DNA from: a bacterium
Lineage (GTDB): Bacteria; Patescibacteriota; Minisyncoccia; JACQLN01
DNA: 64,000 nucleotides
Direction: 5' to 3'
Assembly: GCA_030697795.1 (NCBI GenBank)
Contig: JAUYOV010000004.1
Span: 211,334-275,333, forward strand
This document shows, piece after piece, positions 3,613 to 47,073 of this stretch. The position numbers and the translations under genes are program-made. Position 1 is the stretch's first letter. Each line of letters begins with the position of its first letter. The notes under the pieces were generated by a model. It was not told where the DNA came from and ran no database searches. It saw only the letters and a program-made list of their open reading frames with translations.

Positions 3613-3699
3613 GCCCAGGTGGCGGAATTGGCAGACGCACAGGACTCAAAATCCTGCGATGGCAACATCATGAGGGTTCGACCCCCTTCCTGGGCACCA
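3613..3699 (+). tRNA. tRNA-Leu (anticodon CAA)
   Basis: Cloverleaf: 7-bp acceptor stem GCCCAGG/CCTGGGC; anticodon stem CAGGA/TCCTG with loop CTCAAAA, giving anticodon CAA; long variable arm typical of tRNA-Leu; T-loop TTCGACC; discriminator A; CCA is encoded. Confidence 0.85.
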
Positions 3700-19621: not shown

Positions 19622-20024
19622 GTTTTCTAAGCTAATAATTTTTTTAAAAATATTATGGAAAATTTCTCCATTAAAGCCCCCCCCCTACGGAGTTGAAATA
19701 TCGCTGGTGCATAAAATTTGTGAATTGTATAAATTATTCCACGAATGTTTGAAAATATTTCCCAAGACGGAACGATTTACTTTGGGCCAAAAAATTGAGA
19801 ACACCATTCTAGAAATTTTAGAACTAATCCTTTCAGCCAGTTACCAATCAAAATATGGAAAAAGTGAAACCTTAATAAGAGGTAGCGATAAAAATGACCT
19901 TCTAAAGTATCTTATCCGTCTTGCTCACGATACCAAATCAATCAATATAAAAAAATATCTATTAGTTGAGGAAAAGGTTTTAGAAATAGGTCGTATGTTA
20001 GGTGGCTGGATAAAATCCAACTAA
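19587..20024 (+). CDS. avd: Avd-like accessory variability determinant (four-helix-bundle family); true start probably near 19709-19718
   Basis: Paralogous to the two other Avd-like ORFs and shares the C-terminal IGRMLGGWI motif. Alignment to those paralogs places the N-terminus near VHKICELYK. Confidence 0.7.
   Translation: MPFLNSRQAKNKFSKLIIFLKILWKISPLKPPPYGVEISLVHKICELYKLFHECLKIFPKTERFTLGQKIENTILEILELILSASYQSKYGKSETLIRGSDKNDLLKYLIRLAHDTKSINIKKYLLVEEKVLEIGRMLGGWIKSN
19677..19686. repeat. Homopolymer C10 in the divergent RT1/avd1 promoter region
   Basis: 10 consecutive C, 56 bp upstream of the RT1 start codon and about 25-30 bp upstream of the likely avd1 start. Confidence 0.9.
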
Positions 20025-20055
20025 ACTTTGCAAAGAGCGCCTAAAAAATAAGGCG
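20024..20055 (+). terminator. Intrinsic terminator after avd1 (AGAGCGCC-loop-GGCGCTCT followed by a T-run)
   Basis: 9-bp GC stem and U-tract. Lies between avd1 and TR1. Confidence 0.5.
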
Positions 20056-20180
20056 CTCTTTTGTTTGGAAACTACCAGAGGACGACCAGCTATGTTGTCG
20101 TTGCGATTGCTAGACCAATTGTAGTTGACGTTGGCTAGACCACCGTTCTCACGGTTACCACCGTAAAGCCGGCTGGAGTC
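20054..20180 (-). repeat. DGR template repeat TR1 (AAC-rich on the minus strand)
   Basis: About 127 nt, nearly identical to 20491-20618. All 8 differences are A in TR1 versus C/T/G in VR1. TR1 encodes GGNRENGGLANVNYNWSSNRNDNIAGRPLV. Confidence 0.85.
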
Positions 20181-20431
20181 CTCAAATTTTTGCTTTAAAC
20201 CGTCCATAATCACCGAAAATCTAAATATAAATTTTCTGAAATCCGCATCCCACGGATAGTTTTTTACTCGGCAACTCTTAAATAATCTAAGAATACCCGA
20301 TCTAGTTTAAAGCAAGGAGTTTCGTTATTTCCTGTTTTAAACAGGAGAGTAAATGCGAGAATAAACCTTAGTCTATTCTTCATTAGCTTTACTCAAGGAA
20401 AATTTTACCAAATTTGTGAAAATAAAAAAAT

Positions 20432-20451
20432 CCCCCAACTTACGTTGGGGG
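20432..20451 (-). promoter_or_regulatory. GC-rich hairpin (CCCCCAAC-GTAA-GTTGGGGG) about 40 bp downstream of VR1
   Basis: 8-bp stem with a GNRA-type loop on the target strand. Confidence 0.4.
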
Positions 20452-20486
20452 AAAATCCAAGGGCCAAAGCCCAAGGGGAAAAGAAC

Positions 20487-21320
20487 CTACTTTGCGAAAC
20501 TCACCAGAGGACGACCAGCTATGCTGCCGCTGCGATTGCTAGACCAATCGTAGTTGACGTAGGCTAGACCACCGTACTCACGGTGACCACCGTAAAGCCG
20601 GCTGGAGTCCTCAAACTTATCGTCGAACCACTCCCACATATTGAATCGGCCGCGATTGCTGTCGTAGAGATTGCCAATGGCATTGGACTCTACAGCCCGC
20701 TCCAACCGAACCTGTTCGGGTTTGAAACCGAATGCTTCGGCGATAGCAGGACAAACCACATCTCGCCATTCATCGTTGGTAATGGCAAAACGAGAGCCCG
20801 AAGGAGTATTATCGTGTTTGCCGATTTTTCCTTCTTCGCGCAATTTACTGATGATTAGCGCGAGAGGGTCATTGGAAAATACTTGCGTGCCGTCGGTGTA
20901 ATTCACACCGACGGTGAAATCAGCTAGATACCAACCTCTGTAGAGTTTGGCACTGTCGGGGGCGAGCTTGCCTTCCCCGATTTTCTGGTAGAACCATTTT
21001 TCAGGTTTTACCCAATTCTTGAGCTTGCAATTCTCGCCAATTCCTTCCATCGGCAGATATACCGGCCTGAAGTCGAACCCAGCCCACTTGGCCAAGTTCT
21101 CTTCGGTGAATTCGGGAGGCAGAGGATCAACATCCACACGGAAGAACTTTTGAAGCTTCTTCTGTGTTGCCTCCACTAAAGCTACCAGCAAAGACACTAT
21201 GCGATGTTCGTTGAAAGCTTTAACACTTTCCAAAGTGTGACTGCCGTCATCTATCTGACGGAAAAAATCTTTGAGCACGCCGGACCACGCCGACATCTCA
21301 CCGACTGGGGCATTAGCCAT
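20487..21320 (-). CDS. DGR target protein 1 (FGE/C-type-lectin-like C-terminal variable domain); GC-rich
   Basis: VR1 lies at the C-terminus. The pattern WEWFDD...RLYGG...GRPLV resembles FGE-type CLec folds. Strong SD AGGAGA upstream. Confidence 0.75.
   Translation of the reverse strand: MANAPVGEMSAWSGVLKDFFRQIDDGSHTLESVKAFNEHRIVSLLVALVEATQKKLQKFFRVDVDPLPPEFTEENLAKWAGFDFRPVYLPMEGIGENCKLKNWVKPEKWFYQKIGEGKLAPDSAKLYRGWYLADFTVGVNYTDGTQVFSNDPLALIISKLREEGKIGKHDNTPSGSRFAITNDEWRDVVCPAIAEAFGFKPEQVRLERAVESNAIGNLYDSNRGRFNMWEWFDDKFEDSSRLYGGHREYGGLAYVNYDWSSNRSGSIAGRPLVSFAK
20491..20618 (-). repeat. DGR variable repeat VR1 (3-prime end of target 1)
   Basis: Encodes GGHREYGGLAYVNYDWSSNRSGSIAGRPLV at the C-terminus of the 277-aa ORF. 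Confidence 0.85.
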
Positions 21321-25542: not shown

Positions 25543-25870
25543 ATAGATGAATTGTATCGTAACAAGAGAAAAATATCACGCTAAAGGAATGTTATAATAT
25601 TCATATCCTGCTAATGCAGTTTGAACCATGGTTCAAACTCGCGGGATATCTCATTTTTGCCTTTCCGCCAAAGCTTTACGGGCGGTAAAAGAATCGCCAG
25701 AGTATTAAACCTTACGGGGTTTAATAGCGTGCGAACTAAAATGGAGATGGAACTTCTTGCTTGTTTTTGGTGGAGATTCCGCCAAAGGCGGATGCTCCCA
25801 AGTAAAATTCAGGAAAGAAGAAACATAAATTTCATACTTTCCGGTGATATTGGATGGAAACAAGCAAAAT

Positions 25871-25992
25871 CTTGACTCCGATGGCAACCGCGTTAGCGTC
25901 GGCAACTTCGATCAGAACGGCCTCAACATCAACAACAACTGGGACGATAACCGCAACGACAATCTTGGCCTGGCCTCCTCTCGAACTTCCAT
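25871..25992 (+). repeat. DGR template repeat TR2 (AAC-rich on the plus strand, non-coding location)
   Basis: Matches the reverse complement of 27629-27749. Encodes VGNFDQNGLNINNNWDDNRNDNLGLASSR, versus VR2 VGDFDRFGLYFDYDHDDNRYDSLGLASSR. Confidence 0.75.
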
Positions 25993-26002
25993 CTGCAACC
26001 AT

Positions 26003-26026
26003 AAAACCCTCCTTTAGGAGGGTTTT
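26003..26026. terminator. Bidirectional hairpin AAAACCCTCC-TTTA-GGAGGGTTTT between TR2 and the avd2 stop
   Basis: 10-bp stem flanked by A/T runs on both sides. Confidence 0.5.
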
Positions 26027-26037
26027 ATGGTTTTGCA

Positions 26038-26388
26038 TCAATGAGTTTTTGACGAGCGGATCCAACCGCCTAACATCCGCCCTATCTCATTAACCATTTC
26101 CTGAATTAAAATATATTTTTTATTCTCTAAAACACCAATATCTTTAGCCAAGCGGACATAAACCCTAAAAAGATTGAGCTTAACACTAACTCTTTCTAAG
26201 TATGTTACTCTTTTGAGCTTATCCAAACTGCTTATTTCCAACAAATAGCCCAATATCTCAATCAAAATCAAATTGCATTTCTCGCCTAAAGAATACTTGT
26301 CTTGCTTGGGAAAACCTTTCAAACAAGCATAAAATTCTTTATATAAATCGTAGGTTTTTTTAAATAGCGGAATATCAAAACTATCCAT
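26038..26388 (-). CDS. avd: Avd-like accessory variability determinant (avd2)
   Basis: 116 aa. C-terminus EIGRMLGGWIRS. Paralog of avd1 and avd3. Start diverges from RT2 with a 2-nt overlap. Confidence 0.75.
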   Translation of the reverse strand: MDSFDIPLFKKTYDLYKEFYACLKGFPKQDKYSLGEKCNLILIEILGYLLEISSLDKLKRVTYLERVSVKLNLFRVYVRLAKDIGVLENKKYILIQEMVNEIGRMLGGWIRSSKTH

Positions 26389-27382
26389 GAAAATTTATCA
26401 AAATATATACGAACAAATAATCTCTGCCGAAAATTTGTTTCTAGCTTGGGCAGAATTCAAAAAAGATAAACAAAAAAGAAAAGACGTTATGCAATTTGAA
26501 TACAGGCTGGAAAAAAATATTTTAGGCTTGTGCCAAGAACTAAAAAATCAAACATATAAGCATAGTCCTTATAGTAATTTTTATATAACCGACCCCAAAC
26601 CCAGGCACATTCACAAAGCATTGGTTAGAGACAGAGTGGTGCACCATTCAGTTTTTAATATCCTTAATCCTGTTTTTGAAAAAACTTTTATCTTTAATTC
26701 TTATTCCTGCAGAAAAAACAAAGGCACTCACAAGGGCATAAACCAATTACACAAAATTTTAAGAAAAATAAGCCAAAACAATCATAAACCATGCTTTATA
26801 TTAAAATGCGATATTAAAAAATTCTTTCAATCAGTTAATCACGGTATTTTGTTAAATATTATTGATCGAAAAATATACGATGAAAAAGCATTGGCCTTAA
26901 TTAAAGAAATTGTAGAGAGTTTTAAACCCGGGTTGCCCATAGGCAACCTAACCAGCCAATTATTTGCCAATATTTATTTAAATAATCTGGACCAATATAT
27001 AAAGCACCATTTAAAAATTCCCTTTTATATAAGATATACCGATGATTTTGTGATTATTTATAACGATTTGGAAAAACTAAAACAGTGGCTTAGCCAGATT
27101 CAGGAATTTTTAAATGTAAACCTAAAACTACGTCTGCATCCCAATAAAGTTATTCTGCGCAAATATCATCAAGGAACTGATTTTTTGGGCTATGTGCAAT
27201 TTCCCCATTATTGTATTTTGCGCCCTAGAACCGAAAGAAGAATAATGAAAAGGATACAGCAGGGAGTTTCTGAACAATCGCTAAATTCATATCTAGGTGT
27301 GCTTTCTCATGCTAATAGTTATAAATTATCGGAAAAAATCAAAAACTTGTTTTGGTTTAATAAAAAAGAAAACCCGTCTTGA
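26387..27382 (+). CDS. DGR reverse transcriptase (RT2)
   Basis: IGNLTSQLFANIYLN (SQ motif); IRYTDDFV. Matches RT1 and RT3 along its length. Confidence 0.85.
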   Translation: MKIYQNIYEQIISAENLFLAWAEFKKDKQKRKDVMQFEYRLEKNILGLCQELKNQTYKHSPYSNFYITDPKPRHIHKALVRDRVVHHSVFNILNPVFEKTFIFNSYSCRKNKGTHKGINQLHKILRKISQNNHKPCFILKCDIKKFFQSVNHGILLNIIDRKIYDEKALALIKEIVESFKPGLPIGNLTSQLFANIYLNNLDQYIKHHLKIPFYIRYTDDFVIIYNDLEKLKQWLSQIQEFLNVNLKLRLHPNKVILRKYHQGTDFLGYVQFPHYCILRPRTERRIMKRIQQGVSEQSLNSYLGVLSHANSYKLSEKIKNLFWFNKKENPS

Positions 27383-27427
27383 TGGACGAGTTAAAAAATA
27401 ATTATAATTCCACAATTAAAAATTACG

Positions 27428-27463
27428 TTGGTTGGTTGGTTGGTTGGTTGGTTGGTTGGTTGG
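27428..27463. repeat. Microsatellite (TTGG)9
   Basis: Perfect tetranucleotide tandem repeat between the RT2 stop and the target 2 stop. Confidence 0.9.
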
Positions 27464-27567
27464 AATTGGAACTCTCTTTCATTATAAATTTAGTATAACA
27501 TAATTGGTTATAAAAAATTGAACCCTCGGATTTTCCGAAGGTTCAAGAAACAAAATTCAAAAGCCTG

Positions 27568-27597
27568 CCCCGCACCGAGCTACGCTCTGGTGCGGGG
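27568..27597 (-). promoter_or_regulatory. GC-rich hairpin (CCCCGCACC...GGTGCGGGG) about 30 bp downstream of VR2
   Basis: 9-bp perfect GC stem. Position is analogous to the hairpins after VR1 and VR3. Confidence 0.4.
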
Positions 27598-27622
27598 ATT
27601 CAATACTTCAAAACTCAACTCC

Positions 27623-28396
27623 CTATTTGGAACTTCGAGAGGAGGCCAGGCCAAGACTGTCGTAGCGGTTATCGTCATGGTCGTAGTCGAAGTAGAGGCC
27701 GAACCGATCGAAATCGCCGACGCCAACGCGGCTGCCATCGGAGTCAAGAGACGAAGTTCGGACATAGGTGTGTTCGAACAGTCGCTCACCAGTAGCCATG
27801 AAGTGGCCAATGATGGCGTAGACCACCACTTGCGCCTTCGGTGTTTCCTCGTCTTTGCCGAGTAGCTTCTGCTGATCATCCCAAGTCTTGGACGTGGAAT
27901 CCATAACCGGAGTTTTGCGGACGAGATGCCATCCGACTTCGCCCTTGTATTTGGCAAAAGTCTCCTTGTTGTACCAATCCTGTTCATAAAACAGGCGCTG
28001 ACCGTTGTTAGCGACCTTGCCTCGGATGTCCAGGATTGAGAGAGGAAAAATGGCGACAAGGGTATGCGTGTCTCTTGCCTCGGTAAGCTCGGCTTCAGTG
28101 AACGGAACTTCGGCCAAAGCCGAGATCTGCGCTCGCGTGGGCTTTACACCGAGATACTGAATCGCTTCCTCTACCCCAAACATGTTGCGCCCCATTATCT
28201 GATGGGCCGTTTTCTGCGAAGTGGTGGCTTCATAGCCGCCGTTGCTGATAAGCCTAACCACTTTCGTGGCAAGGTCATTGCCCTTGGAGCCTATGACTCT
28301 CTGGGCAAGTTCATCGTTGAGGCCAGCGGCCTCAAGTTTTAGGAGCACTTCATGCTCTTTGTGCACCGACAGAGTACGGCTCACGATGGTTTCCAT
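27623..28396 (-). CDS. DGR target protein 2 (C-terminal variable domain); GC-rich
   Basis: 257 aa. VR2 at the C-terminus. Strong SD GGAGGT upstream. Confidence 0.75.
   Translation of the reverse strand: METIVSRTLSVHKEHEVLLKLEAAGLNDELAQRVIGSKGNDLATKVVRLISNGGYEATTSQKTAHQIMGRNMFGVEEAIQYLGVKPTRAQISALAEVPFTEAELTEARDTHTLVAIFPLSILDIRGKVANNGQRLFYEQDWYNKETFAKYKGEVGWHLVRKTPVMDSTSKTWDDQQKLLGKDEETPKAQVVVYAIIGHFMATGERLFEHTYVRTSSLDSDGSRVGVGDFDRFGLYFDYDHDDNRYDSLGLASSRSSK
27629..27749 (-). repeat. DGR variable repeat VR2 (3-prime end of target 2)
   Basis: See TR2. About 13 mismatches at TR adenines. In addition, one codon differs at all three positions (TGG in TR, CAT in VR) and there is one C/T difference. 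Confidence 0.75.
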
Positions 28397-38022: not shown

Positions 38023-39018
38023 TTAAGCTAGCGGAAAATAAGACATTAGTAAAATATCGGTAATTCCATAAGTATTCCCATGCTTCAACAACCCCAAATA
38101 AGAACTTACCGTTTCTGGCTCTGGGTTCTCTCCAATTCTTTTCATCATCCGTTTTTTAGTAACTGTTCTTAAAACTTTATGATCTGTAAAATGAACCCAA
38201 CCCAAAAAATCCGCACCCGAAGCTAGAGTTTTGATAAAAACTTTGTCGGGGTGGAGTGTGAGTTTGAGATTTTTAATTAAAAATTCTTGAATCTTTGGGA
38301 TTAAGTTCTCTAACCATTCTTTGTCTTGCGATAAAACCACAAAATCATCGGGGTATCTAATGTAATACTTAACTTTTAATTTATGTTTAACAAACTGGTC
38401 AAACTTGTTCATATAGATATTCACCAAAAGCTGGGAGGTTAAATTGCCCAAGGGCAAACCAATATTGGGTTTTGTTTTAAAACTGGACACAACATTATTG
38501 AGTAACCAAATAATATTTTTGTCTGGTATATATTCAGTTAGTATCTCTAGCAAAACTTTGTGATGAATACTGGAAAAGAATTTTTTAATGTCGCATTTTA
38601 AGACCCAGCAAGTTTTAGTGTTATTTTGACCAACTTTGTAAGCAAAAGACTGAAAACGATTCAGGGCTTTATGCGTGCCTTTGTTCTTTCGGCAAGAAAA
38701 AGAATCGGCTATGAATGTTTTATCAAAGAAAGGGTAAAGAATATGATAAATTGCGTGGTGAAGTAGCCTATCCCGAACTGTGGCTTTATGTATGTTTCGG
38801 GGTTTGGGGTCGGAAATATTGAAAGCTTGGTAAATGCCATGCCGATAAGTGAAATTGACCAAGTCTTGGTTAAGTTGAAAAATATTATCCATTAAATTAA
38901 AGCCAAATTCCTGCACATCTTTTCTTTTTCTCTTGCCTTTGATAAACTCCTGCCAAGCCAATAACAAATTATCAACGCTAATAACATCTTCAAAACTATG
39001 GATCAATTGAGTTTTCAT
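38023..39018 (-). CDS. DGR reverse transcriptase (RT3)
   Basis: LGNLTSQLLVNIYMN (SQ motif); IRYPDDFV. Paralog of RT1 and RT2. Confidence 0.85.
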   Translation of the reverse strand: MKTQLIHSFEDVISVDNLLLAWQEFIKGKRKRKDVQEFGFNLMDNIFQLNQDLVNFTYRHGIYQAFNISDPKPRNIHKATVRDRLLHHAIYHILYPFFDKTFIADSFSCRKNKGTHKALNRFQSFAYKVGQNNTKTCWVLKCDIKKFFSSIHHKVLLEILTEYIPDKNIIWLLNNVVSSFKTKPNIGLPLGNLTSQLLVNIYMNKFDQFVKHKLKVKYYIRYPDDFVVLSQDKEWLENLIPKIQEFLIKNLKLTLHPDKVFIKTLASGADFLGWVHFTDHKVLRTVTKKRMMKRIGENPEPETVSSYLGLLKHGNTYGITDILLMSYFPLA

Positions 39019-39035
39019 AATTCTACATTAAGTAA

Positions 39036-39046
39036 CCCCCCCCCCC
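39036..39046. repeat. Homopolymer C11 in the 53-bp divergent RT3/avd3 intergenic region
   Basis: 11 consecutive C. A similar C10 tract at 19677-19686 sits between RT1 and avd1. Confidence 0.9.
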
Positions 39047-39071
39047 GAGACTTCCACCGCTGATTGATAAA

Positions 39072-39443
39072 ATGAAAAATCTCTATTTTATCTGGTTTCA
39101 ATACTACCAGATTTTACCCAAAGCGCATCGCTACACGCTTGGCCGCAGAATTGACTCTATGTTTATTGAAATAGTTGAAGCGATAGTTACAGCGTCTTTT
39201 CTAACGCAAGAAAAGAAGCTCCCGTTTGTTCAGCACGCCCTTCGCAAAACAGACACGCTTAAAATCCTATTACAAGTATTATGGGAAACTAAATCTTTAG
39301 ATGATAAAAAATATATAGCCGTATCAAAACCTTTAGAAGAAATCGGCAAAATGCTGGGTGGCTGGAATGGCCAGCTTCAAAAACCCCTCGACATAGCTCG
39401 GGATAAAGAAAACTCTCCCCACAAAAAGCAGAGAGAGAAATAA
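39072..39443 (+). CDS. avd: Avd-like accessory variability determinant (avd3)
   Basis: 123 aa. C-terminal EEIGKMLGGW motif. Confidence 0.75.
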   Translation: MKNLYFIWFQYYQILPKAHRYTLGRRIDSMFIEIVEAIVTASFLTQEKKLPFVQHALRKTDTLKILLQVLWETKSLDDKKYIAVSKPLEEIGKMLGGWNGQLQKPLDIARDKENSPHKKQREK

Positions 39444-39447
39444 AGAA

Positions 39448-39573
39448 AGTTGCGAGCACGGCCGAAGGATTGTTGGCATTCCAGTCGTTCTCAAGCCAGT
39501 TGTAGTTCCAGTCCCACTCACCATCGTTCCAGTAGAGATAAAGAACGTTGCGGTTGCCATTCGGACTGCGAAT
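39448..39573 (-). repeat. DGR template repeat TR3
   Basis: Encodes RSPNGNRNVLYLYWNDGEWDWNYNWLENDWNANNPSAVLA. Begins 5 nt after the avd3 stop. Confidence 0.85.
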
Positions 39574-39824
39574 ATATTGTATAAAGCGCCACCTATGCCA
39601 CCACCCCTTGAATACTCTTAGGGTTGTATCGTATTTGGTATCTAAAATACCCTAGCGCTATATACCGAGTATCTTCATTTTTTTAAGCTTCCATAAACCA
39701 CCCTATTCCCAACCGTAATCGGGAATACTCTCGATTTATGGTTACTGGCTTCGGTAGCAGGCAACCTTAATCGCCCGCGTATTCACCTAATACCATTTGC
39801 ATAATAACATTTTGCAAAAGAAAA

Positions 39825-39851
39825 TTCCCTACGACATTACGTCGTAGGGAA
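39825..39851 (-). promoter_or_regulatory. Hairpin TTCCCTACGAC-loop-GTCGTAGGGAA about 54 bp downstream of VR3
   Basis: 11-bp stem. Confidence 0.4.
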
Positions 39852-39902
39852 TTTAGAGTACAAAGTCCAAAGGATCTAAAAGTTCTAGAATTCTAAGGAC
39901 TA

Positions 39903-40547
39903 TTAACTCGCGAGCACGGCCGAAGGATCGTAGGCACTCCAGCCGCCCTCAAGCCAGCGGCAGTACCAGCCCCACCCACCACCGCCCCAGCAGAGACAAA
40001 GAACGTAGCGGCGGCCAAGCGGACCGCGAAGGGTGGTGCCGTCAAAGGAAATGAAGGTGGTATTGCTGTTCGTTTTTTCTTTCCAACTTTCGGGAATAAG
40101 ACTCTTGTTTTCCCAGAGAGTTTGGAAGATTTTGGCATCTAGGCGGACGTAATTTTTGGCTTTGAGGCGCTTCAGTTTCTCTTCACCTTTGATGACACTC
40201 TCGTCTTCTTTGAGGCAAGTGACTAACTGGATGTTGGAGAGGTCTAGCTCGGTGAGGTTGAGAGAGCGCTCATCCTGTTCTTCCTCGCCCGAGAGACCAT
40301 CGCCATCTGCTGGACCTTTCCAGATGCTCCAACCTTCGCCCAAAAACTGGGCGGGGTTGAAGGGTTGGGTGCGGTTGATTTTTAAGACCGTATCTCCAAA
40401 ACGCCCCTCCACCGCATTCTGCAAATAGCGTTGGAGTTTTGCCGGATCGTAGGGATAACCCTTGGGCTGACGAAGCTGTCGGCCAATTTCAAAAAGCTGG
40501 CCAGTGATGCTTTCGTACAGTTCGCCTGCGACACTAGGATGTGCCAT
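39903..40547 (-). CDS. DGR target protein 3 (C-terminal variable domain); GC-rich
   Basis: 214 aa. VR3 at the C-terminus. Confidence 0.8.
   Translation of the reverse strand: MAHPSVAGELYESITGQLFEIGRQLRQPKGYPYDPAKLQRYLQNAVEGRFGDTVLKINRTQPFNPAQFLGEGWSIWKGPADGDGLSGEEEQDERSLNLTELDLSNIQLVTCLKEDESVIKGEEKLKRLKAKNYVRLDAKIFQTLWENKSLIPESWKEKTNSNTTFISFDGTTLRGPLGRRYVLCLCWGGGGWGWYCRWLEGGWSAYDPSAVLAS
39905..40030 (-). repeat. DGR variable repeat VR3 (3-prime end of target 3)
   Basis: Encodes RGPLGRRYVLCLCWGGGGWGWYCRWLEGGWSAYDPSAVLA. 24 substitutions relative to TR3, all at TR adenines. Confidence 0.85.
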
Positions 40548-40754: not shown

Positions 40755-41195
40755 ATGGAGGCCAAAACAAACAAAAAGGCGTTTTTTAATTACGAAATCC
40801 TAGAAAAGTTCGAGGCGGGTTTGGTGTTGCTTGGAGGCGAAGTTAAATCTATAAGAAATAATCATTACAGTTTACAAGGCGCATACATAACAGTAGAAGA
40901 TGAAGAGGCTTGGTTAGTGAAAGCCATGATCGCCCCTTACCAGCCTAAAAATATGAGCGGGCAGTATAACCCCGAACGCAAGCGCAAACTTTTACTTAAC
41001 AAAAAAGAACTCCAGTATTTACAAGGAAAAACAAAGGAAAAAGGCTTGACTATTGTGCCTCTAAAAGTTTACAATAAGCACGGTCAAATCAAGTTAGAAA
41101 TTGCTTTAGCCAAAGGTAAAAGCAAGGGCGATAAGAGAGAAGTTCTTAAAAAACGTATCGCCGACCGAGATATCGCCAGAGAACTTAAATCTTGA
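40755..41195 (+). CDS. smpB: SsrA-binding protein
   Basis: Matches SmpB along its length (FFNYEILEKFEAGLVLLGGEVKSIR...). Confidence 0.9.
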   Translation: MEAKTNKKAFFNYEILEKFEAGLVLLGGEVKSIRNNHYSLQGAYITVEDEEAWLVKAMIAPYQPKNMSGQYNPERKRKLLLNKKELQYLQGKTKEKGLTIVPLKVYNKHGQIKLEIALAKGKSKGDKREVLKKRIADRDIARELKS

Positions 41196-41260
41196 AACTT
41201 GTAACCTGAAACTTCAGAAAAAAGATACGAGCTACAAGTTGCGAGTTACAAGATTAACAT

Positions 41261-41620
41261 CGGGGATGACATGAATCGACAAGGAACGTATCGATAAGAA
41301 TTCGAAGCTGAGGTAGACCACAAACTCATAAAACTGGTTACAAATAGTAAGTGCAAACTTATTTAGCGCTAATAAACCAGCGTTTGCTGTAGCTTAAAAT
41401 CTATCAGCCATCGCCCTGTTTTCGCCCGAGTAAACAGTGTGCGGTGCCAACCTTTCGGGCCGCTCTTTCAGGCCAGGCGAACTTGAAAGCTAAGACAACG
41501 CCAAAAGTTTAATTTTTTTCACCATTCTTTAAGGGTTAAACTTAAATTAAGAATGGTTAGGCTTCGTACTAGTTCAATCGAGAAATTTTTTGTACGCGGG
41601 TTCAATTCCCGCCATCTCCA
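41261..41620 (+). ncRNA. ssrA: tmRNA (ssrA)
   Basis: 5-prime end GGGGATGACATGAATCGACAAGG matches the canonical GGGGnTGAnnnnGAnTCGACnGG. 3-prime tRNA-like end GTACGCGGGTTCAATTCCCGCCATCTCCA has a T-arm and a 7-bp acceptor stem pairing with the 5-prime end. Immediately downstream of smpB. Tag ORF ends ...PAFAVA-stop. Confidence 0.8.
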
Positions 41621-41710
41621 CTGCTACGCCAAGGCTACGCAGTGCACGCACCAATCTAAACAAGACATGCTATATTAATTGAACGATCTTGTTAGATTAG
41701 AATAGTAGCA

Positions 41711-41776
41711 GTGTCCTTCGTAGCTTTACCGTGTCCTCCGTAGTCTTTGACGAAGGAGGAGCGAAGTAGGACAACC
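41711..41776. repeat. Small palindromic repeat family, intergenic copy (between tmRNA and the GIY-YIG gene)
   Basis: CCTTCGTAGCTTTACCG...GACGAAGGAGGAGCGAAGTAGG. Confidence 0.7.
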
Positions 41777-42019
41777 TTTATGTATTACGTATATGTCTTA
41801 AAAAGTTTAAGAGATAACAGTTTTTATAAAGGTGTTACTGCTGATTTAAAAAAGAGAATCTTGGAGCATAATTCTGGATTAGCTAAATATTCTTCTTTTA
41901 AAAAACCTTTTAAACTAGTCTGGTACTCTGCGTTTTCAAACAAAGAAAAGGCTTATAAATTTGAAAAGTATATAAAATCTGGATCTGGTTTCGCTTTCGT
42001 TAACAAACACCTAATTTGA
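41747..42019 (+). CDS. GIY-YIG domain protein (paralog of 3368-3604); probable start at 41780
   Basis: YYVYVLKSLRDNSFYKGVTADLKKRILEHN matches the GIY-YIG signature. Overlaps the infC start by 4 nt. Confidence 0.55.
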   Translation: MTKEERSRTTFMYYVYVLKSLRDNSFYKGVTADLKKRILEHNSGLAKYSSFKKPFKLVWYSAFSNKEKAYKFEKYIKSGSGFAFVNKHLI

Positions 42020-42507
42020 AAATAAACAACCAAATACGTTCCGAAAAGTTAGTAGTTATAGATGAAACCGGCAAAAACTTGGGCGTTTTAACTTTGCAGG
42101 AAGCTTTAAAAATGGCCAAAGAAAAAGGCCTAGATTTAGCCGAAGTTAACCCTACTGCTACCCCGCCAGTTGCCAAAATCATAGATTATGGTAAATTTGA
42201 ATACCGCCAAAGGAAAGCCGAACAGAAAATGAAAGCCTCCAACAAGAGGCAGGAGCTTAAAACGGTACGTATTGGGCTTAAAACATCTGTGCACGATACC
42301 GAGGTAAAAGCTGGTTTAGCTGATAAATTCTTAAAAAAGGGTGATCAAGTTAGGTTAGAAATATTCCTAAGAGGCAGAGAAAAAGCCTTCAGAGACTTAG
42401 CTAGAACCAAGCTTATAGCTTTTGAGAAGATGATTGCCGAGACTCACAAAACAGATGGTTCGCCTACTAGCTCGCCTTCCGGTTGGTCTATAACTATACA
42501 TAAATAA
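42016..42507 (+). CDS. infC: Translation initiation factor IF-3
   Basis: Conserved IF-3 N and C domains (VRLIDE-like VVIDETGKNLGV; LEIFLRGRE). Confidence 0.85.
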   Translation: MKINNQIRSEKLVVIDETGKNLGVLTLQEALKMAKEKGLDLAEVNPTATPPVAKIIDYGKFEYRQRKAEQKMKASNKRQELKTVRIGLKTSVHDTEVKAGLADKFLKKGDQVRLEIFLRGREKAFRDLARTKLIAFEKMIAETHKTDGSPTSSPSGWSITIHK

Positions 42508-42527
42508 ATATTGATTCATAGAAAAAT

Positions 42528-42731
42528 ATGGGTGCAAAAACAAACAAATCGATGGCGAAAAGATTCCGTGTAACCAAGAACGGAAAGCTTATGCACAGAA
42601 CCCCAAACCAGAATCACTTTAGAGCTAAAAAATCTAGTAATAGAAAAAGAAACATAGGAAAAGGTTCAGCTATGGCTAAACCCGAAGTTAAAAATATTTT
42701 AGAAAGAATGCCGTTTGCAAGATTAAGTTAA
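42528..42731 (+). CDS. rpmI: 50S ribosomal protein L35
   Basis: 67 aa, basic. Position between infC and rplT, and KRFRVTKNGK match L35. Confidence 0.8.
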   Translation: MGAKTNKSMAKRFRVTKNGKLMHRTPNQNHFRAKKSSNRKRNIGKGSAMAKPEVKNILERMPFARLS

Positions 42732-42737
42732 AAAAAT

Positions 42738-43088
42738 ATGGCACGCGTAAAAAGAGGAACAATTGCGTCTAAACGCAGAAAAAATTTATTAAAATATACC
42801 AAAGGCTTTAAGTGGTCACGTAATACGCATTACCGAGCGGCTAAAGAAGCTTTGTTGCATGCCTGGAGCAAAGCTTATCACGATCGCAAAAAGAAAAAGG
42901 GTGACTTTAGAACTTTTTGGCAGATTAAAGTTGGTGCCGCGGCTAAACAAAATGGAATTTCTTACAGCCGTTTTATAAACGCCCTTAAAAAAGCCAACGT
43001 GGAGTTAGACCGAAAAATTTTGGCCGACATCGCCGAAAACAATCCCGAGGTTTTTGCTAAAATTGTAGAAAAAGTAAAAGTTAAATAA
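42738..43088 (+). CDS. rplT: 50S ribosomal protein L20
   Basis: MARVKRGTIASKRRKNLLKYTKGF matches the L20 N-terminus. Confidence 0.9.
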   Translation: MARVKRGTIASKRRKNLLKYTKGFKWSRNTHYRAAKEALLHAWSKAYHDRKKKKGDFRTFWQIKVGAAAKQNGISYSRFINALKKANVELDRKILADIAENNPEVFAKIVEKVKVK

Positions 43089-43104
43089 TATAACTTAAAT
43101 AAAA

Positions 43105-43133
43105 ATACCCCCAAGCTTGGGGGTATTTTTATT
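43105..43133. terminator. Bidirectional intrinsic terminator ATACCCCC-AAGCTT-GGGGGTAT plus T-run
   Basis: 8-bp GC stem with flanking A- and T-runs, between the rplT and racemase 3-prime ends. Confidence 0.6.
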
Positions 43134-43830
43134 TGTAGCTAAGCCTAACCACTTCTTTAGCTAATACTTCTAAGGGGTCAACGATTGGAATCTTAACAAA
43201 TTTTCTTACCTTTTCGGCGTACAAAGAAAATTCCGTACAAGCAAAAATAACAGCTTCGGAATTTTCATCAAATTTTTTTATTACGCTAACAATATTTTCT
43301 AAAATATTTTTCTCGCATCCAGCTTTTATGCTGTAAATAATCTTAGAGACTTTCTGCTGCGTTCTTTTATCCGGACAGATCCAGTTGATTTTATTAGAAT
43401 CATTTTTTGATTGATAAATCTTTTCTCTTACAGTAGCCTCGGTGGCTAAAATAAGCACACTGCCAAAATTACTGGCGACATTATTTACCGTAAGATCGAT
43501 CATATCTAATATCGGTAGTGAAGTATTTTTTTGTATTTCTTTAAGTTTGGCATGGGCAGTATTACAAGTGATAGCCACTAAACTTGCACCGGATTTAGCA
43601 AGAACATTAAGCGATTTACAAACCTCTTTTACATAATTTTTACCACCATCTTGAGTCAAAGATATTGTTCTATCTGGAATTTTAGGGTTGGTAAAACAGA
43701 TCACTTGAATATGGTCTTGATCTTTTTTGGCTGGCGTTGAGTCTATTATAAGTTTTTGAAACCAGATACCCGCCATTGGCCCCATACCACCTAGAACACC
43801 CAAACGAAATAACTTTTTCTTTTTATCCAT
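43129..43830 (-). CDS. Asp/Glu/hydantoin racemase family protein (aspartate racemase-like)
   Basis: Motifs LGGMGPMAG and the two active-site Cys regions (CFTNP... and ITCNTAH). Confidence 0.7.
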   Translation of the reverse strand: MDKKKKLFRLGVLGGMGPMAGIWFQKLIIDSTPAKKDQDHIQVICFTNPKIPDRTISLTQDGGKNYVKEVCKSLNVLAKSGASLVAITCNTAHAKLKEIQKNTSLPILDMIDLTVNNVASNFGSVLILATEATVREKIYQSKNDSNKINWICPDKRTQQKVSKIIYSIKAGCEKNILENIVSVIKKFDENSEAVIFACTEFSLYAEKVRKFVKIPIVDPLEVLAKEVVRLSYK

Positions 43831-44893
43831 TTTTATTTTTTATTATTTCAATAACTTGGTCTTTAGGGATAGATTTTAAAGTATTACCTCCTCGACCAGT
43901 AGTGGTTTTGGCAGCAAATAAAGCATCGTAAACACTCTCTTCCACCGCCTCAACGGCTCCCAAGAAAAACTGCGTTAAATCTGCATCGAGCAAACATTTA
44001 GACAAATCTCCTTCGCCCTCTATACCATTTCTGTTAGTACTAAAAGCTATAATATAATCTCCGCTACCATGCGCCATCACAGAACCTGTTTTAGCCAAAC
44101 CCAATACCGCTCTTTTAGCTATTCTTTTTAGCTGGCGAGCTGAAAATGGAGCGTCCGTTGCTAAAACAACCACACAAGATCCATCGCCTGTTTTAATAAA
44201 ATTATCAAAATCGGTTTCGCCTAGAATTTTTCCTATGGGTAATCCTAAAATATTTAATGCTCCACCAAAATTTGTTTGAACCAAAGCACCCAATGTATAT
44301 TTTTTATTTCCAATTTTTATTAAACGCGAAGACGAGCCAATACCACCCTTCCAAGAAAATACTCGCGTGCCAACACCTGCTCCCACACAACCCGCCCCTG
44401 TATTAGTCGATAAATTTTTAAAAGCCTTAAACACATCGTCTGCACCGATTGAATTTTTATGAATGTTATTTAACCAACCATCGTTAGTTTCGCCAACTAC
44501 AGTATTTATAGTTTCTATTGGTTTAATATCTGGTGAATTTTTTATAACCCAATCTACTACACCGCGCATTACCGGCCCCACCGCCAAAGTATTGGTTAGG
44601 GCAATTGGTGTTTCCAAAGTACCTAATTCTTCTACTTGAGTTATGCCAGTCAACTTTCCAAAACCGTTACCCACATAAATTGCCGCCGGAATTTTTTTTC
44701 TAAATAAATTTTTTATTCCAGGATCAATTATAGTTATTCCAGTTCTAATATCGCGACCAGATATTTTATTAAAGTGACCAACTCTTACACCTAAAACATC
44801 GGCTATAGAATTTTTTTTGCCGCATGGCAAAAAACCGACTTTAAAGCCATAATCTTTGAATCTTTTTATTAATATATTTTCTTTGTTTTTCAT
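43823..44893 (-). CDS. P1/S58 family (DmpA-like) aminopeptidase / D-aminopeptidase
   Basis: Motifs FSWKGGIGSSSR, VQTNFG and VVLATDAPFSARQLKRIAKRAVLGLAKTGS...HGSGDYIIAFST match the DmpA family. Confidence 0.6.
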   Translation of the reverse strand: MKNKENILIKRFKDYGFKVGFLPCGKKNSIADVLGVRVGHFNKISGRDIRTGITIIDPGIKNLFRKKIPAAIYVGNGFGKLTGITQVEELGTLETPIALTNTLAVGPVMRGVVDWVIKNSPDIKPIETINTVVGETNDGWLNNIHKNSIGADDVFKAFKNLSTNTGAGCVGAGVGTRVFSWKGGIGSSSRLIKIGNKKYTLGALVQTNFGGALNILGLPIGKILGETDFDNFIKTGDGSCVVVLATDAPFSARQLKRIAKRAVLGLAKTGSVMAHGSGDYIIAFSTNRNGIEGEGDLSKCLLDADLTQFFLGAVEAVEESVYDALFAAKTTTGRGGNTLKSIPKDQVIEIIKNKNG

Positions 44894-44948
44894 TTATTAA
44901 AATTGGCGCGTGCTTGAAGTTTTATTCCACCTCAAGCCCGCGCACTTT

Positions 44949-46718
44949 TTATCCAAACACTACCGGAGCAACCGCCATATCTACCATGCCGTGAACCCTA
45001 AAAGTATTTGAGGGTACAGCACAAGCAGAAACAGAGACGAGCTCCCCACCAACCATCCACGGACGCAACAAAATGCGACAACTAAAGGCTTCGCCACAAT
45101 TTCGGCGAGTATTCATAACCGGTATACGCACAACGCCGCTCTCCAAACGACGCTGAACTATAAATGGCTGGTTTAAACCCAAGCGCTCTTTGATCCAGTC
45201 TGACCAAGTATCGCTAGTTAAACCATGACCAATCAAAACACCATAGGATCTGGCCGATAGAGTATTCGCTCCACAGACCTTAAGCACCAATCGGTTTCTC
45301 TCCTCTTCCTCTAAATGTATAAGCTGGAGAATACCTACAATGTGTAATCCAGCCACAGAACACGGAAAAGATTTATGAACACTGTGAGGACGAACCAAGT
45401 GAGAATCTGGCAGAATCGTATCTAGAACAGAAAAAGATTCTAGAGAAAGTTCACGACGGAAAAAATCTGCTCGGCTCCTAAAAATAGAAAACCAAGCTTT
45501 GTTTCCGAAATGAGCAAACTCTGGCACCATACGCACAAAACCGTCTCTGGCCGCACAAACCAAATCACCTAACTTGTTACCTTCGGTTTCAAAGATTGGG
45601 AATTGTCGCCAAATAGTACCGATCTTTTTCTCACCCAAATAAACTCCATGAGAATTAATAGTGAGACAATCTAGGTGTTCGGTAGAAAGAAAAAAAGCTG
45701 GGTAACCGCGTCTCCGTAAGTCTTCTACCAACCACTTAATTTCGGGCATGTAGCATAGACTCCACTTATGCGACACAAGAAAAAGTATTGGCCCAGATTC
45801 TACTAACCAATCAAAACATCTTCTCCACCTATCCTGATTAACTCCGTAGGCTTGATCCAAATGAACCAGCTCCGCAAAACCACCTGGCATCTCGTCATTT
45901 TCTGAAGCGAATACACCATCGCCTGTAAAATGTAAATCGGGACGACGCACCGAAAATGTTTTTTTGGTAGGAAAAAGATAAATATCCTTAAGCGCTCCAT
46001 TAAGATCAACACCGGAAAAAAGCATTTCAGGAACACTGCTATCAAGAGAGGTTAATTTACAACTCGATTCTTCAAACTCATCAAATGCCATCATTATCTG
46101 TTTTAAGCTAGTTTCATCACAAACCAGAGGTTCGGGAGGAATTCTTATCCAGCTTATTTTAGAATCCTTGGGTAATTCTAAAACCTTTTCTTGATCAGCT
46201 ATGGCTTGGGCGAAATCCGGACCACTGTTTAGCCTACCAATTACTTTAGATACATCGCCTAAATTTACACTCATCGGAGGTTTTTCATTGAGACGAGGCT
46301 TGCCCCATGGATAATAACCAATACCAATACGATCTTGGAAATTGCGAACAAAATCGGCACGCAATTGGCGAGCGCAGCCCTCAATTCTTCTACAACTTCT
46401 ACCAACTCTAACGCACCATTGCGCACCATATGCCCAACTAGGAATATTTGAAGATTCACCGGGACGAAGTTGTGTCGTTGGGCTAAACTGCTTAATCATA
46501 CCGCTGTCAAAAAGAACCACCGCTGAATCTGGCGAAATTCCGCTTTCAAACATAGCCTTAACTTCATTGGCGTCTGTGAAAACAATGCACTCCTGTTCAC
46601 TGCCAAGCATCGATTTAAGTTCACCAATAACCTGCTCGCTTACCGAATTACCCTTTAAGGTAAAAAACAATCTCGGCGTATTAAAGAGCGCCTGAAAAGT
46701 ATTGTTAATGCGTAACAT
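44949..46718 (-). CDS. Hypothetical 589-aa protein; compositionally atypical (about 48-50% GC; Cys/Trp/Arg-rich); possibly ATP-grasp-like
   Basis: Long ORF with a strong SD (AAGGAGGA). The fold is not confidently recognised. GC is clearly above the flanking genes. Confidence 0.3.
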   Translation of the reverse strand: MLRINNTFQALFNTPRLFFTLKGNSVSEQVIGELKSMLGSEQECIVFTDANEVKAMFESGISPDSAVVLFDSGMIKQFSPTTQLRPGESSNIPSWAYGAQWCVRVGRSCRRIEGCARQLRADFVRNFQDRIGIGYYPWGKPRLNEKPPMSVNLGDVSKVIGRLNSGPDFAQAIADQEKVLELPKDSKISWIRIPPEPLVCDETSLKQIMMAFDEFEESSCKLTSLDSSVPEMLFSGVDLNGALKDIYLFPTKKTFSVRRPDLHFTGDGVFASENDEMPGGFAELVHLDQAYGVNQDRWRRCFDWLVESGPILFLVSHKWSLCYMPEIKWLVEDLRRRGYPAFFLSTEHLDCLTINSHGVYLGEKKIGTIWRQFPIFETEGNKLGDLVCAARDGFVRMVPEFAHFGNKAWFSIFRSRADFFRRELSLESFSVLDTILPDSHLVRPHSVHKSFPCSVAGLHIVGILQLIHLEEEERNRLVLKVCGANTLSARSYGVLIGHGLTSDTWSDWIKERLGLNQPFIVQRRLESGVVRIPVMNTRRNCGEAFSCRILLRPWMVGGELVSVSACAVPSNTFRVHGMVDMAVAPVVFG

Positions 46719-46837
46719 ATTATCCTCCTTAGGATAAAAGTAGTGTTAGGATTTTAAGGAACTTCCAGTGGCCTAAATTTTAGGACACTGGTTTGAACAT
46801 CCAGTTTAGATGCTCAAACCAATTTCCAAAACTTAAA

Positions 46838-46857
46838 AAACCTCCGGAAGGAGGTTT
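46838..46857 (-). terminator. Hairpin AAACCTCC-GGAA-GGAGGTTT downstream of the MGMT-NUDIX-PolX cluster
   Basis: 8-bp stem plus a T-run on the minus strand. Confidence 0.5.
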
Positions 46858-47073
46858 TGATGATTATCTTTATAAAATATATCGGATTAGACCATGTAGA
46901 CTGCTATATTTTTATCAAAACCTCCTTGGTTTCTAACTTTAAGTAAGCGCAAAGTAAACCAGTTAATTGTTCTGGTCTTTGGCATATATGTATAATGCGT
47001 GGCTTTGATAAAACTCATAGTATATGAGTATACTATATTAACTATATTCTTAAGTCAACTAGGCTGAGCTTGG

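Follow-up and report, generated by a model that had tools for sequence, protein, structure and literature searches.

Organization of the gene X operon

The Patescibacteria (Candidate Phyla Radiation, CPR) account for much of the diversity of bacteria, and their physiology has mostly been deduced from absences. We analysed a stretch of 64,000 nucleotides, referred to throughout as the window, from a genome of this group (assembly GCA_030697795.1, contig JAUYOV010000004.1, positions 211,334 to 275,333 of the forward strand) and focused on an open reading frame (ORF) of 589 amino acids, designated here gene X, its downstream partners and its leader. On balance, we favour the reading that an operon inherited vertically throughout the Patescibacteria has gene X as its first structural gene, followed by genes for an S58-family aminopeptidase and an amino acid racemase. 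An initial annotation, made from the DNA letters alone, had placed the ORF correctly (44949-46718; it lies on the minus strand), along with its strong Shine-Dalgarno (SD) sequence and its position between peptidase and repair genes. The SD stands 5 nt ahead of the ATG, and the gene is flanked by the S58 peptidase gene and, at its opposite end, by MGMT-like, NUDIX and PolX genes. The tentative suggestion in that annotation of an ATP-grasp or peptide-ligase-like fold is backed by structure prediction, a fold search and the catalytic motif. The terminator hairpin that it described is also real (46837-46858, with a T-run) but, because gene X is on the minus strand, it precedes the start codon by 119 nt and does not, as had been thought, come after the gene. 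The structural part of the operon comprises the following features.

46724-46730, minus strand: Shine-Dalgarno sequence AAGGAGG of gene X
44949-46718, minus strand: gene X, 589 aa in two domains; the ligase part, residues ~156-589, is a predicted carboxylate-amine ligase of the ATP-grasp type found in glutathione synthetase (GS), GspS, YgiC and Cp1B
46254-46718, minus strand: N-terminal domain of X (residues 1-155), predicted α/β, Pth/HybD/amidase-like fold, without a known family
44905-44945, minus strand: hairpin without a T-run, within the 55 nt that separate X from S58
43823-44893, minus strand: S58 (DmpA/BapA-type) N-terminal nucleophile (Ntn) aminopeptidase, Pfam PF03576 (E 6e-104), in which the self-processing nucleophile site, Gly238|Ser239, is intact
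43129-43830, minus strand: aspartate-type (acidic amino acid) racemase, Pfam PF01177, its start overlapping the S58 stop by 8 nt
43097-43134, minus strand: operon-end terminator, a 17-bp hairpin between A and T runs, shared with the convergent rplT

Homologues of X were collected from a set of 5.8 billion proteins, yielding 147 sequences at E <= 1e-3, all of them unnamed, mostly 580-640 aa long and 42-80% identical across their full length. Every taxon stated by a source lies within the Patescibacteria (Uhr-, Sung-, Lipton- and Pacebacteria). An exhaustive search returned 156 cluster representatives in three forms: the ligase-fused form (~600 aa), the ligase alone (~450 aa, 34-40% identical) and a stand-alone form of 150-200 aa. 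Scanning one genome per species gave 27 X loci, all but one labelled Patescibacteria/CPR or unclassified 'bacterium'. A 38%-identical member was seen in a metagenome-assembled genome labelled 'uncultured Gammaproteobacteria' (L032), where the contig ends right past the gene.

Of 30 informative loci, about 25 have the genes for X, S58 and the racemase in the same order and on the same strand; the outer flanks of these loci are unrelated, and host G+C contents (GC) run from 37% to 66%. A racemase gene was counted downstream in about 24 of the 30. The distance matrix of each of the three proteins correlates with those of the other two (Mantel r 0.73, 0.72 and 0.57; p <= 0.0005), and the three co-evolve. 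The operon is conserved across many CPR classes and its lead enzyme has no curated family, though fold and active site mark it as a putative amide-bond-forming ligase.

Gene X encodes a predicted ATP-grasp ligase

The structure of X was modelled with AlphaFold2 on the family alignment (mean predicted local distance difference test score, pLDDT, 93.1; predicted template modelling score, pTM, 0.87). In a fold search, residues ~190-589 of the model matched the permuted ATP-grasp class, which combines a pre-ATP-grasp and an ATP-grasp domain, and the matches include Cp1B, YgiC/YjfC, GspS, trypanothione synthetase and glutathione synthetases, at sequence identities of 8-16%. Residues invariant in the family are R259, D261, E273, D275, P278, G279, Y323, R371, K407, K480, G483, Q522 and H576. 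Among them is the predicted Mg2+/acyl-phosphate motif, R259-P-D261...E273-N-D275-E-M-P278-G279, conserved without exception in 53 close and 54 distant members, down to ~20% identity. This corresponds to the ATP-grasp motif R-x-D...E-x-N-x-x-P-G with Asp replacing Asn at the third metal ligand. In Cp1B, residues R139, D141, E163 and N165 surround the nucleotide, and their substitution by Ala abolishes or attenuates activity (PMC12568646); these four are the equivalents of the X motif residues. Profile alignments, sub-significant in both cases, place the X motif in register with RvDff...EiNTmPG of Mycobacterium tuberculosis Ddl and, with hhalign, RlDl...ENNaDTP of Escherichia coli YgiC, where GNK407 of X is aligned to sNKallpllw. 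YgiC and YjfC are peptide-spermidine ligases (PMC12568646).

Several observations count against this assignment. The third metal ligand of X is Asp where Asn is usual, and the hhalign comparison with YgiC has a probability of only 1.7%. Searches of Pfam, NCBIfam and the PDB gave no significant match, whether the query was X by itself or one of two profiles, of 53 members and of 54 members extending to ~20% identity; in particular, the Pfam families GSP_synth, GSH_synth_ATP and CP_ATPgrasp_1/2 matched neither X, nor the 53 members, nor the distant relatives. Because there is no sequence-level membership in a curated ATP-grasp family, the enzyme assignment rests on the predicted structure and short motifs. 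Even so, the model and the invariant motif make it very probable that X is an ATP-grasp ligase, and we hold with high, though not complete, confidence that it is a catalytically competent carboxylate-amine ligase. Since it is equally distant (8-16% identity) from every characterized subfamily, we regard X, as modelled, as a separate and new family of GS/GspS-type ATP-grasp ligases.

The N-terminal domain of X

The N-terminal domain resembles PDB 3pu6, Pth and HybD in the fold search and carries the conserved motifs FFTLxGNxxSE, AVxLFD, PxW..W, CAxQ..ADF and PWG, which the stand-alone forms retain. Its near-invariant positions comprise D71, the sole polar one, and Pro, Trp and Gly residues; Cys and His are not conserved. 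Pth- or HybD-like catalysis was considered and rejected, as there is no conserved catalytic His or metal triad. Nor is the domain a CHAP-family amidase with a catalytic Cys, as in bifunctional GspS. Pfam has no match for the N-terminal domain of X, the stand-alone proteins or the distant ATP-grasp relatives, and a profile search with the domain alignment returned just three already-known proteins and no new fusion architectures. The domain probably binds the acceptor or a partner protein, a role that we put forward as speculation.

The stand-alone homologues (P0150-P0256; 150-200 aa) finish in a basic tail, rich in Arg and Lys and often with an aromatic ending (SLW, FA or W). The two such genes with readable context (L037 5001-5555 and L038 5001-5510) are not beside ligase genes, and so provide no Rosetta-stone link. 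The L038 gene is situated between smpB and GIY-YIG/infC-rpmI-rplT, the same neighbourhood as that found with a tmRNA gene at 40755-43088 of the window. There, smpB (40755-41195), the tmRNA gene (41262-41623; Rfam 105 bits; 1.5 kb beyond the end of the operon) and a small GIY-YIG-like ORF (41747-42019) are upstream of infC-rpmI-rplT, as in L038.

The S58 peptidase and racemase partners

The DmpA/BapA family acts on D-amino-acid N-termini as well as on those of β-amino acids. DmpA and BapA are Ntn-hydrolase aminopeptidases with β-amino-acid N-termini as substrate, activated by autoproteolysis at a Gly-Ser bond (PMC9570944). The S58 protein of the window is closest to a DmpA-like 'D-aminopeptidase' from Pyrococcus horikoshii (PDB 2drh, 1.5e-75), followed by BapA (2.5e-48) and DmpA (5e-44), with the GS...ATDAP site aligned. 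The racemase scores 153 bits with TIGR00035 and passes narrowly the model for the cysteate racemase CuyB (198.4 bits against a cutoff of 190); its best PDB matches are the aspartate racemases 1jfl (2e-34) and McyF.

The S58 gene has no visible SD. The hairpin in the spacer ahead of it differs from its counterpart in L010, the closest relative, by double changes that compensate each other (GG/CA to AA/TT; T/A to C/G), and may serve as a processing, stability or translation-tuning element.

Clusters of the short-form relatives have the orders ATP-grasp-S58-racemase-M20 and M20-ATP-grasp-racemase. A 29%-identical ATP-grasp relative (P0155) is encoded in L039 (4150-7717) between a glutathione S-transferase (GST)-like gene and a lysine-2,3-aminomutase-like radical-SAM gene, the latter being another supplier of a non-standard (β) amino acid; this cluster is near TrwC and ArdA genes of a conjugative element, and may be a β-lysine ligase module. 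We found no description of the X-S58-racemase cassette in the literature. Given the fixed pairing of the ligase with a racemase and a D-/β-specific aminopeptidase, which points to a dedicated D-amino-acid chemistry, possibly of the cell wall, in host-attached organisms, the three proteins probably form a functional unit in D-amino-acid amide metabolism.

A conserved leader precedes gene X

The region between the MGMT gene and X holds a set of elements that are listed here in the direction of transcription.

47030-47058, minus strand: TTGACT-17-TAGTAT, a promoter-like site conserved in L010 and placed immediately before the mini-ORF; the -10 element ends ~11 nt before the mini-ORF ATG
46887-47018, minus strand: leader mini-ORF, 43 codons, without an SD, product MSFIKATHYTYMPKTRTINWFTLRLLKVRNQGGFDKNIAVYMV, with a single Trp at codon 20
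46914-46925, minus strand: candidate antiterminator strand GGAGGTTTTGAT, within mini-ORF codons 32-35, a perfect 12-nt complement of 46850-46861
46837-46861, minus strand: candidate attenuator/terminator, formed by ATCAAAACCTCC (5' arm and flank, 46850-46861), the loop TTCC, GGAGGTTTT (3' arm) and a T-run; the hairpin core with its T-run, AAAACCTCC-TTCC-GGAGGTTTT, spans 46837-46858
46783-46827, minus strand: second stable hairpin, in the 5' untranslated region of X (-25.6 kcal/mol), near-identical in L010

Between the window and L010, identity is 88% for the 355-nt intergenic region that separates MGMT from X and 83% for the X-S58 spacer, compared with 57% at the third codon positions of X. 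The leader folds with a z-score of -7.3 in the window; among relatives, in which the gap upstream of X is long (typically 250-700 nt), the mean is -4.0, with 23 of 28 below -2. No known RNA family was found with Rfam, which gave only sub-threshold matches to the leader (Phe_leader, RF01859, scored 27.9 bits, its gathering score being 55). A search with nhmmer recovered L010 alone, so the leader is conserved in architecture and not in sequence.

That architecture recurs widely. A hairpin with a T-rich tail stands between the mini-ORF and X in all 28 loci, 13-14 of which share the same CCTCC...GGAGG stem. Upstream, a significant complement to the 5' arm of the hairpin is present in 20 of 28 loci (mean z -3.0), and a complement falls inside the mini-ORF in 27 of 28, including loci with wholly different stem sequences; the stems vary among lineages and their complementarity is retained. 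An ATG-initiated ORF of 30-60 codons that ends 85-200 nt upstream of X was found in 24 of 27 loci, where dinucleotide shuffles predict 5.5 (p ~5e-14), and this upstream ORF has exactly one Trp in 20 of 27 (1.7 expected from the shuffles; p ~7e-19). Nearly all loci have a mini-ORF of 30-43 codons with a single Trp; the encoded peptides share a polar/basic N-terminus and a W-[F/M/L] aromatic motif; Asp and Glu are nearly absent (1.6% and 1.2%) and the C-termini are unconserved. A -10-like box is placed 7-14 nt upstream of the mini-ORFs, which lack an SD, an arrangement that suggests leaderless translation. When the nascent transcript was folded before the 3' arm had emerged, the 5' arm paired with mini-ORF codons ~28-38. 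With the ribosome at the Trp codon this pairing formed in 19 of 23 loci, compared with 14 when no ribosome was present and 11 when it stood at the stop codon (p = 0.03).

The leader combines several features of a ribosome-mediated attenuator: a short 5' ORF, putatively translated, an intrinsic terminator before X, and an exclusive antiterminator pairing that overlaps the ORF. The attenuators of the trp, phe and his leaders likewise have a short 5' ORF and an intrinsic terminator, together with an alternative pairing in which the ORF takes part. The X leader differs from these in having one Trp codon and not a run of codons, in a mini-ORF of ~40 codons that lacks an SD and is probably leaderless, and in its host, the Patescibacteria. 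The sensory leader peptide TnaC also depends on a single essential Trp, but the distance from the Trp to the stop codon is variable in the X leaders (11-29 residues), unlike in TnaC.

Some results weigh against an attenuator. The loci are phylogenetically non-independent, so that the shuffle p-values are optimistic; pN/pS, the ratio of non-synonymous to synonymous change, is only 0.24-0.8 for the mini-ORF; a single Trp codon is no run of regulatory codons; and the difference between nascent states is modest (19 versus 11 of 23). Equilibrium folding by minimum free energy with ribosome footprints predicted the terminator whatever the ribosome state, and only 2 of 23 loci showed a switch, a negative result that we judge uninformative, as it is expected for a kinetic switch. 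With these points included, there is a good likelihood that the leader is a translation-coupled attenuator, and this leader-peptide terminator element of the X operon was previously unnoticed. As a concrete case of translation-coupled regulation in the CPR, it would offer a handle on the inducing signal and, through that signal, on the substrate of X.

The motif GGrATTGr was also seen right after the terminator T-run in distant loci (L001, L003, L010, L011, L012, L027 and L031).

A proposed pathway and its alternatives

We lean towards an explanation in which the leader, the X ligase, S58 and the racemase form a regulated operon for the synthesis and trimming of a D-amino-acid amide, probably one of D-Asp. 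Transcription would begin at the promoter directly upstream of the SD-less, 43-codon mini-ORF. The position of the ribosome on the mini-ORF would then select between antiterminator and terminator, and hence set transcription of X, S58 and the racemase, as the observed architecture suggests; the single conserved Trp codon in the W-[F/M/L] motif is the candidate sensor. The racemase would supply a D-acidic amino acid, most likely D-Asp judging by gene context, as a substrate of X. Going by its fold and motif, X would phosphorylate a carboxylate with ATP, holding the acyl-phosphate with R259, D261, E273, D275 and Mg2+, and attack by an amine would yield the amide bond. In this way X might join the D-acid to an amine, or else join a carboxylate to the amino group of the D-amino acid itself, while the N-terminal domain could bind the acceptor or a partner. 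As X, S58 and the racemase all lack an obvious signal peptide on inspection of their sequences, the chemistry would be cytoplasmic.

The closest functional analogy for the pairing of X with a racemase is AslA/racD. The D-aspartate ligase AslA/Aslfm, encoded in an operon with racD, activates D-Asp as β-aspartyl phosphate (PMC4155827). As is predicted for X, this enzyme of the Lactococcus and Enterococcus peptidoglycan cross-bridge is a carboxylate-amine ligase of the ATP-grasp type whose gene shares an operon with that of an aspartate racemase. AslA/Aslfm was absent from the sequence searches and fold matches of X, so that the two are likened by context and not through direct comparison of sequence or structure; and the AslA/racD operon has no S58 peptidase, N-terminal domain or leader peptide. 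If the β-carboxyl of D-Asp were activated by X as it is by AslA/Aslfm, the N-terminal residue of the product would be both D and β-linked. S58 would be suited to trim, edit or recycle such a product, because a D- or β-linked N-terminal residue is the type of bond that DmpA/BapA enzymes cleave.

Against this proposal, the substrates of X are deduced purely from gene neighbourhood. The racemase also just passes the cysteate-racemase model, and members of TIGR00035 can be of broad specificity; three loci have X and S58 but no racemase, and in one X is alone. AslA/Aslfm belongs to a different ATP-grasp class, which makes the analogy with X a functional one only. Peptidoglycan side chains may be an attractive acceptor, but the specific combination of D-Asp and peptidoglycan is a doubtful one. 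A fuller version of the proposal, which we offer tentatively and think has a limited chance of being right in every part, is a four-part CPR system: a leaderless, single-Trp leader-peptide switch, a new ATP-grasp family with a new N-terminal domain that builds a D-Asp-type isopeptide, and a dedicated D-/β-aminopeptidase that trims it, the product being a peptidoglycan side chain or a signalling or storage amide. If true, this would represent a new CPR cell-envelope or metabolite chemistry, together with the first described ribosome-mediated attenuator in the radiation.

One alternative is a salvage or catabolic module, in which S58 (with M20 in some cases) would free D- or β-amino acids from peptides that the cell scavenges (pieces of host cell wall, for instance), the racemase would convert them to L-forms, X would re-ligate or conjugate them (for example as a dipeptide or a storage or transport form) and the leader would induce the operon when charged tRNA is scarce. 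Translation-coupled attenuators such as the trp, phe and his leaders classically sense amino acid supply, which fits this scheme, as does the ability of the racemase to run in both directions. CPR bacteria are reduced, scavenging organisms (PMC8939145), and some relatives add M20 peptidases and an AstE/AspA-like gene to the cluster. On the other hand, an ATP-consuming ligase is unexpected as the first and most conserved gene of a purely catabolic operon; no gene of the cassette is a transporter, and no gene for one is seen repeatedly beside the cassette in the loci read; and the precedents for a ligase with a racemase, AslA/racD and McyF, are biosynthetic. We consider salvage unlikely.

The mini-ORF could instead encode a precursor or carrier peptide in a system akin to ribosomally synthesized peptides that carry post-translational modifications (RiPPs), with X modifying it (say, through attachment of a D-amino acid at the C-terminus or at a side chain), S58 or M20 processing it and a leaky terminator setting the ratio of precursor to enzyme. 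A conserved ORF of ~40 aa directly upstream of an ATP-grasp ligase, with some peptide-level constraint, an aromatic motif and a Gly-Gly-like element, would suit such a system; the cluster contains peptidases, the extra N-terminal domain of X could recognize a peptide, and ATP-grasp RiPP systems are encoded by CPR bacteria (PMC8939145). The mini-ORF peptides, though, are poor in Asp and Glu and have variable C-termini. Moreover, the 'GG' codons coincide with the terminator-pairing strand and their flanks covary, which argues for a role at the RNA level, the mini-ORF has no SD, and the predicted ligase is of a small-molecule class. The locus lacks the RimK-like ligase and the precursor with a core rich in Thr/Ser and Asp/Glu that define graspetides, a survey of which names no S58 peptidase, racemase or glutathione-synthetase-type enzyme and places the CPR graspetide ligases in a different class (PMC8939145). 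This makes a RiPP-like function improbable.

A poor prospect too, in our view, is that X is a divergent glutathione- or peptide-polyamine-type ligase that conjugates thiols or polyamines in the manner of GspS, YgiC and YjfC, its linkage to S58 and the racemase being incidental. These enzymes, trypanothione synthetase and the glutathione synthetases are among the closest folds, and the two-domain layout, an N-terminal hydrolase-like fold joined to a ligase, recalls the bifunctional GspS amidase/synthetase. Yet X is equidistant from every subfamily. Its identity is 16% with Cp1B (PDB 9cjn), the fungal ATP-grasp enzyme of E-64 biosynthesis, which at 486 aa has no extra N-terminal domain, ends its motif in Asn where X has Asp, and works with an iron/2-oxoglutarate (Fe/2OG) oxygenase and an amide-bond synthetase, unlike X. 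For E. coli YgiC/YjfC, GspS and trypanothione synthetase, identity is 11-12% and the genomic partners differ. For the eukaryotic-type glutathione and homoglutathione synthetases (2hgs, 1m0w and 3kal) and the circularly permuted Mfla_0391 (3n6x), it is 8-13%, with no profile link. X loci have no γ-glutamylcysteine ligase, unlike the context of glutathione synthetase, and none of the α-E or transglutaminase partners that accompany CP-ATP-grasp genes. The GspS N-terminal domain is a CHAP amidase and that of X a Pth/HybD-like fold, none of the 53 members matches GSP_synth or GSH_synth, and X is linked almost universally to S58 and the racemase and co-evolves with them.

Base composition and inheritance of gene X

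The initial annotation had regarded gene X as compositionally foreign and a likely horizontal acquisition between peptidase and DNA-repair genes; in its full form, this view makes X an isolated gene that was inserted there recently. The gene does exceed its neighbours in GC (42.9%, compared with 36.4% for S58, 34.0% for the racemase and 38.7% for PolX), ranking fifth of 43 long ORFs in a window of 38.0% GC, but the value falls short of the 48-50% that had been given. This excess is confined to the first two codon positions (GC1 0.519 and GC2 0.417, against window means of 0.466 and 0.349); at the third, gene X (GC3 0.351) is close to the window mean (0.339), and it is only seventh of 43 in synonymous-codon atypicality. 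Of the reported richness in Cys, Trp and Arg, that in Cys (2.5%, second of 43) and Arg (7.1%, third) held up, while Trp (2.2%) is just ~0.7 standard deviations over the window mean; Lys, at 4.1%, is fifth lowest. The family as a whole averages 7.5% Arg, 2.4% Trp, 3.7% Lys and 1.7% Cys, and 10 of the 13 Trp residues of gene X are invariant in it. The GC1 and GC2 excess is thus explained by an Arg/Trp-rich, Lys-poor makeup that is a trait of the whole family, seen here in an AT-rich host, and serves as a caution for compositional scans: in this case a GC excess limited to codon positions 1 and 2 reflected the makeup of the protein and no foreign origin.

Position tells the same story. In L010, whose X is 81% identical at the amino acid level, the order is the same on both sides, PolX-MGMT-X-S58-racemase followed by the convergent rplT-rpmI-infC. 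A search for direct repeats around the cassette found just AT-rich chance matches, and no tRNA gene adjoins gene X, the sole one in the window being 40 kb off at 3613-3699. Both of the observations that the initial annotation had named as speaking against transfer, a GC or codon usage like that of the genome (GC3 does not differ, and synonymous-codon usage is only mildly atypical) and a conserved position in the lineage, were made. Horizontal acquisition of gene X is not supported, and the locus does not have the features of an acquired genomic islet.

Among relatives, the GC of X is above that of its flanks in 16 of 19 loci (L001-L034; by 5.0 points on average and 8.0 at GC3), and that of its operon partners is not. 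This gene-specific GC3 excess counts against our preferred reading of the locus. Replacement of X alone by a xenologue was considered as its cause and rejected, since X co-evolves with S58 and the racemase. Although this excess, the mildly atypical codon usage, a GC above the 34-39% of the neighbours and the differing genomic positions of the cassette among lineages would each fit a recent transfer, the third-position and family composition, the two-sided synteny with L010, the lack of flanking repeats and an adjacent tRNA gene, the confinement of the family to Patescibacteria, and the fact that the adjacent 'peptidase' is an obligate operon partner within a co-evolving trio leave it highly improbable.

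Diversity-generating retroelements in the window

In composition, three other ORFs of the window (GC 50-54%, GC3 0.56-0.63) depart from the norm much more than gene X does. The window has three diversity-generating retroelement cassettes, at 18713-21320, 25870-28396 and 38023-40547, which contain the following reverse transcriptase (RT) genes and pairs of template repeat (TR) and variable repeat (VR).

18713-19621, minus strand: RT gene of the first cassette
20074-20189/20503-20618: TR/VR pair of the first cassette
26387-27382, plus strand: RT gene of the second cassette
25870-25991/27628-27749: TR/VR pair of the second cassette, inverted
38023-39018, minus strand: RT gene of the third cassette, identified by repeat similarity to the first two and not by a Pfam scan of its own
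39447-39572/39905-40030: TR/VR pair of the third cassette

Mismatches between TR and VR fall at template adenines in 8 of 8, 13 of 18 and 24 of 25 cases, respectively. The VRs are at the 3' ends of GC-rich (50-54%) ORFs without a Pfam match (20487-21320, 27623-28396 and 39903-40547), and these retroelement target genes are the truly composition-deviant genes of the window.

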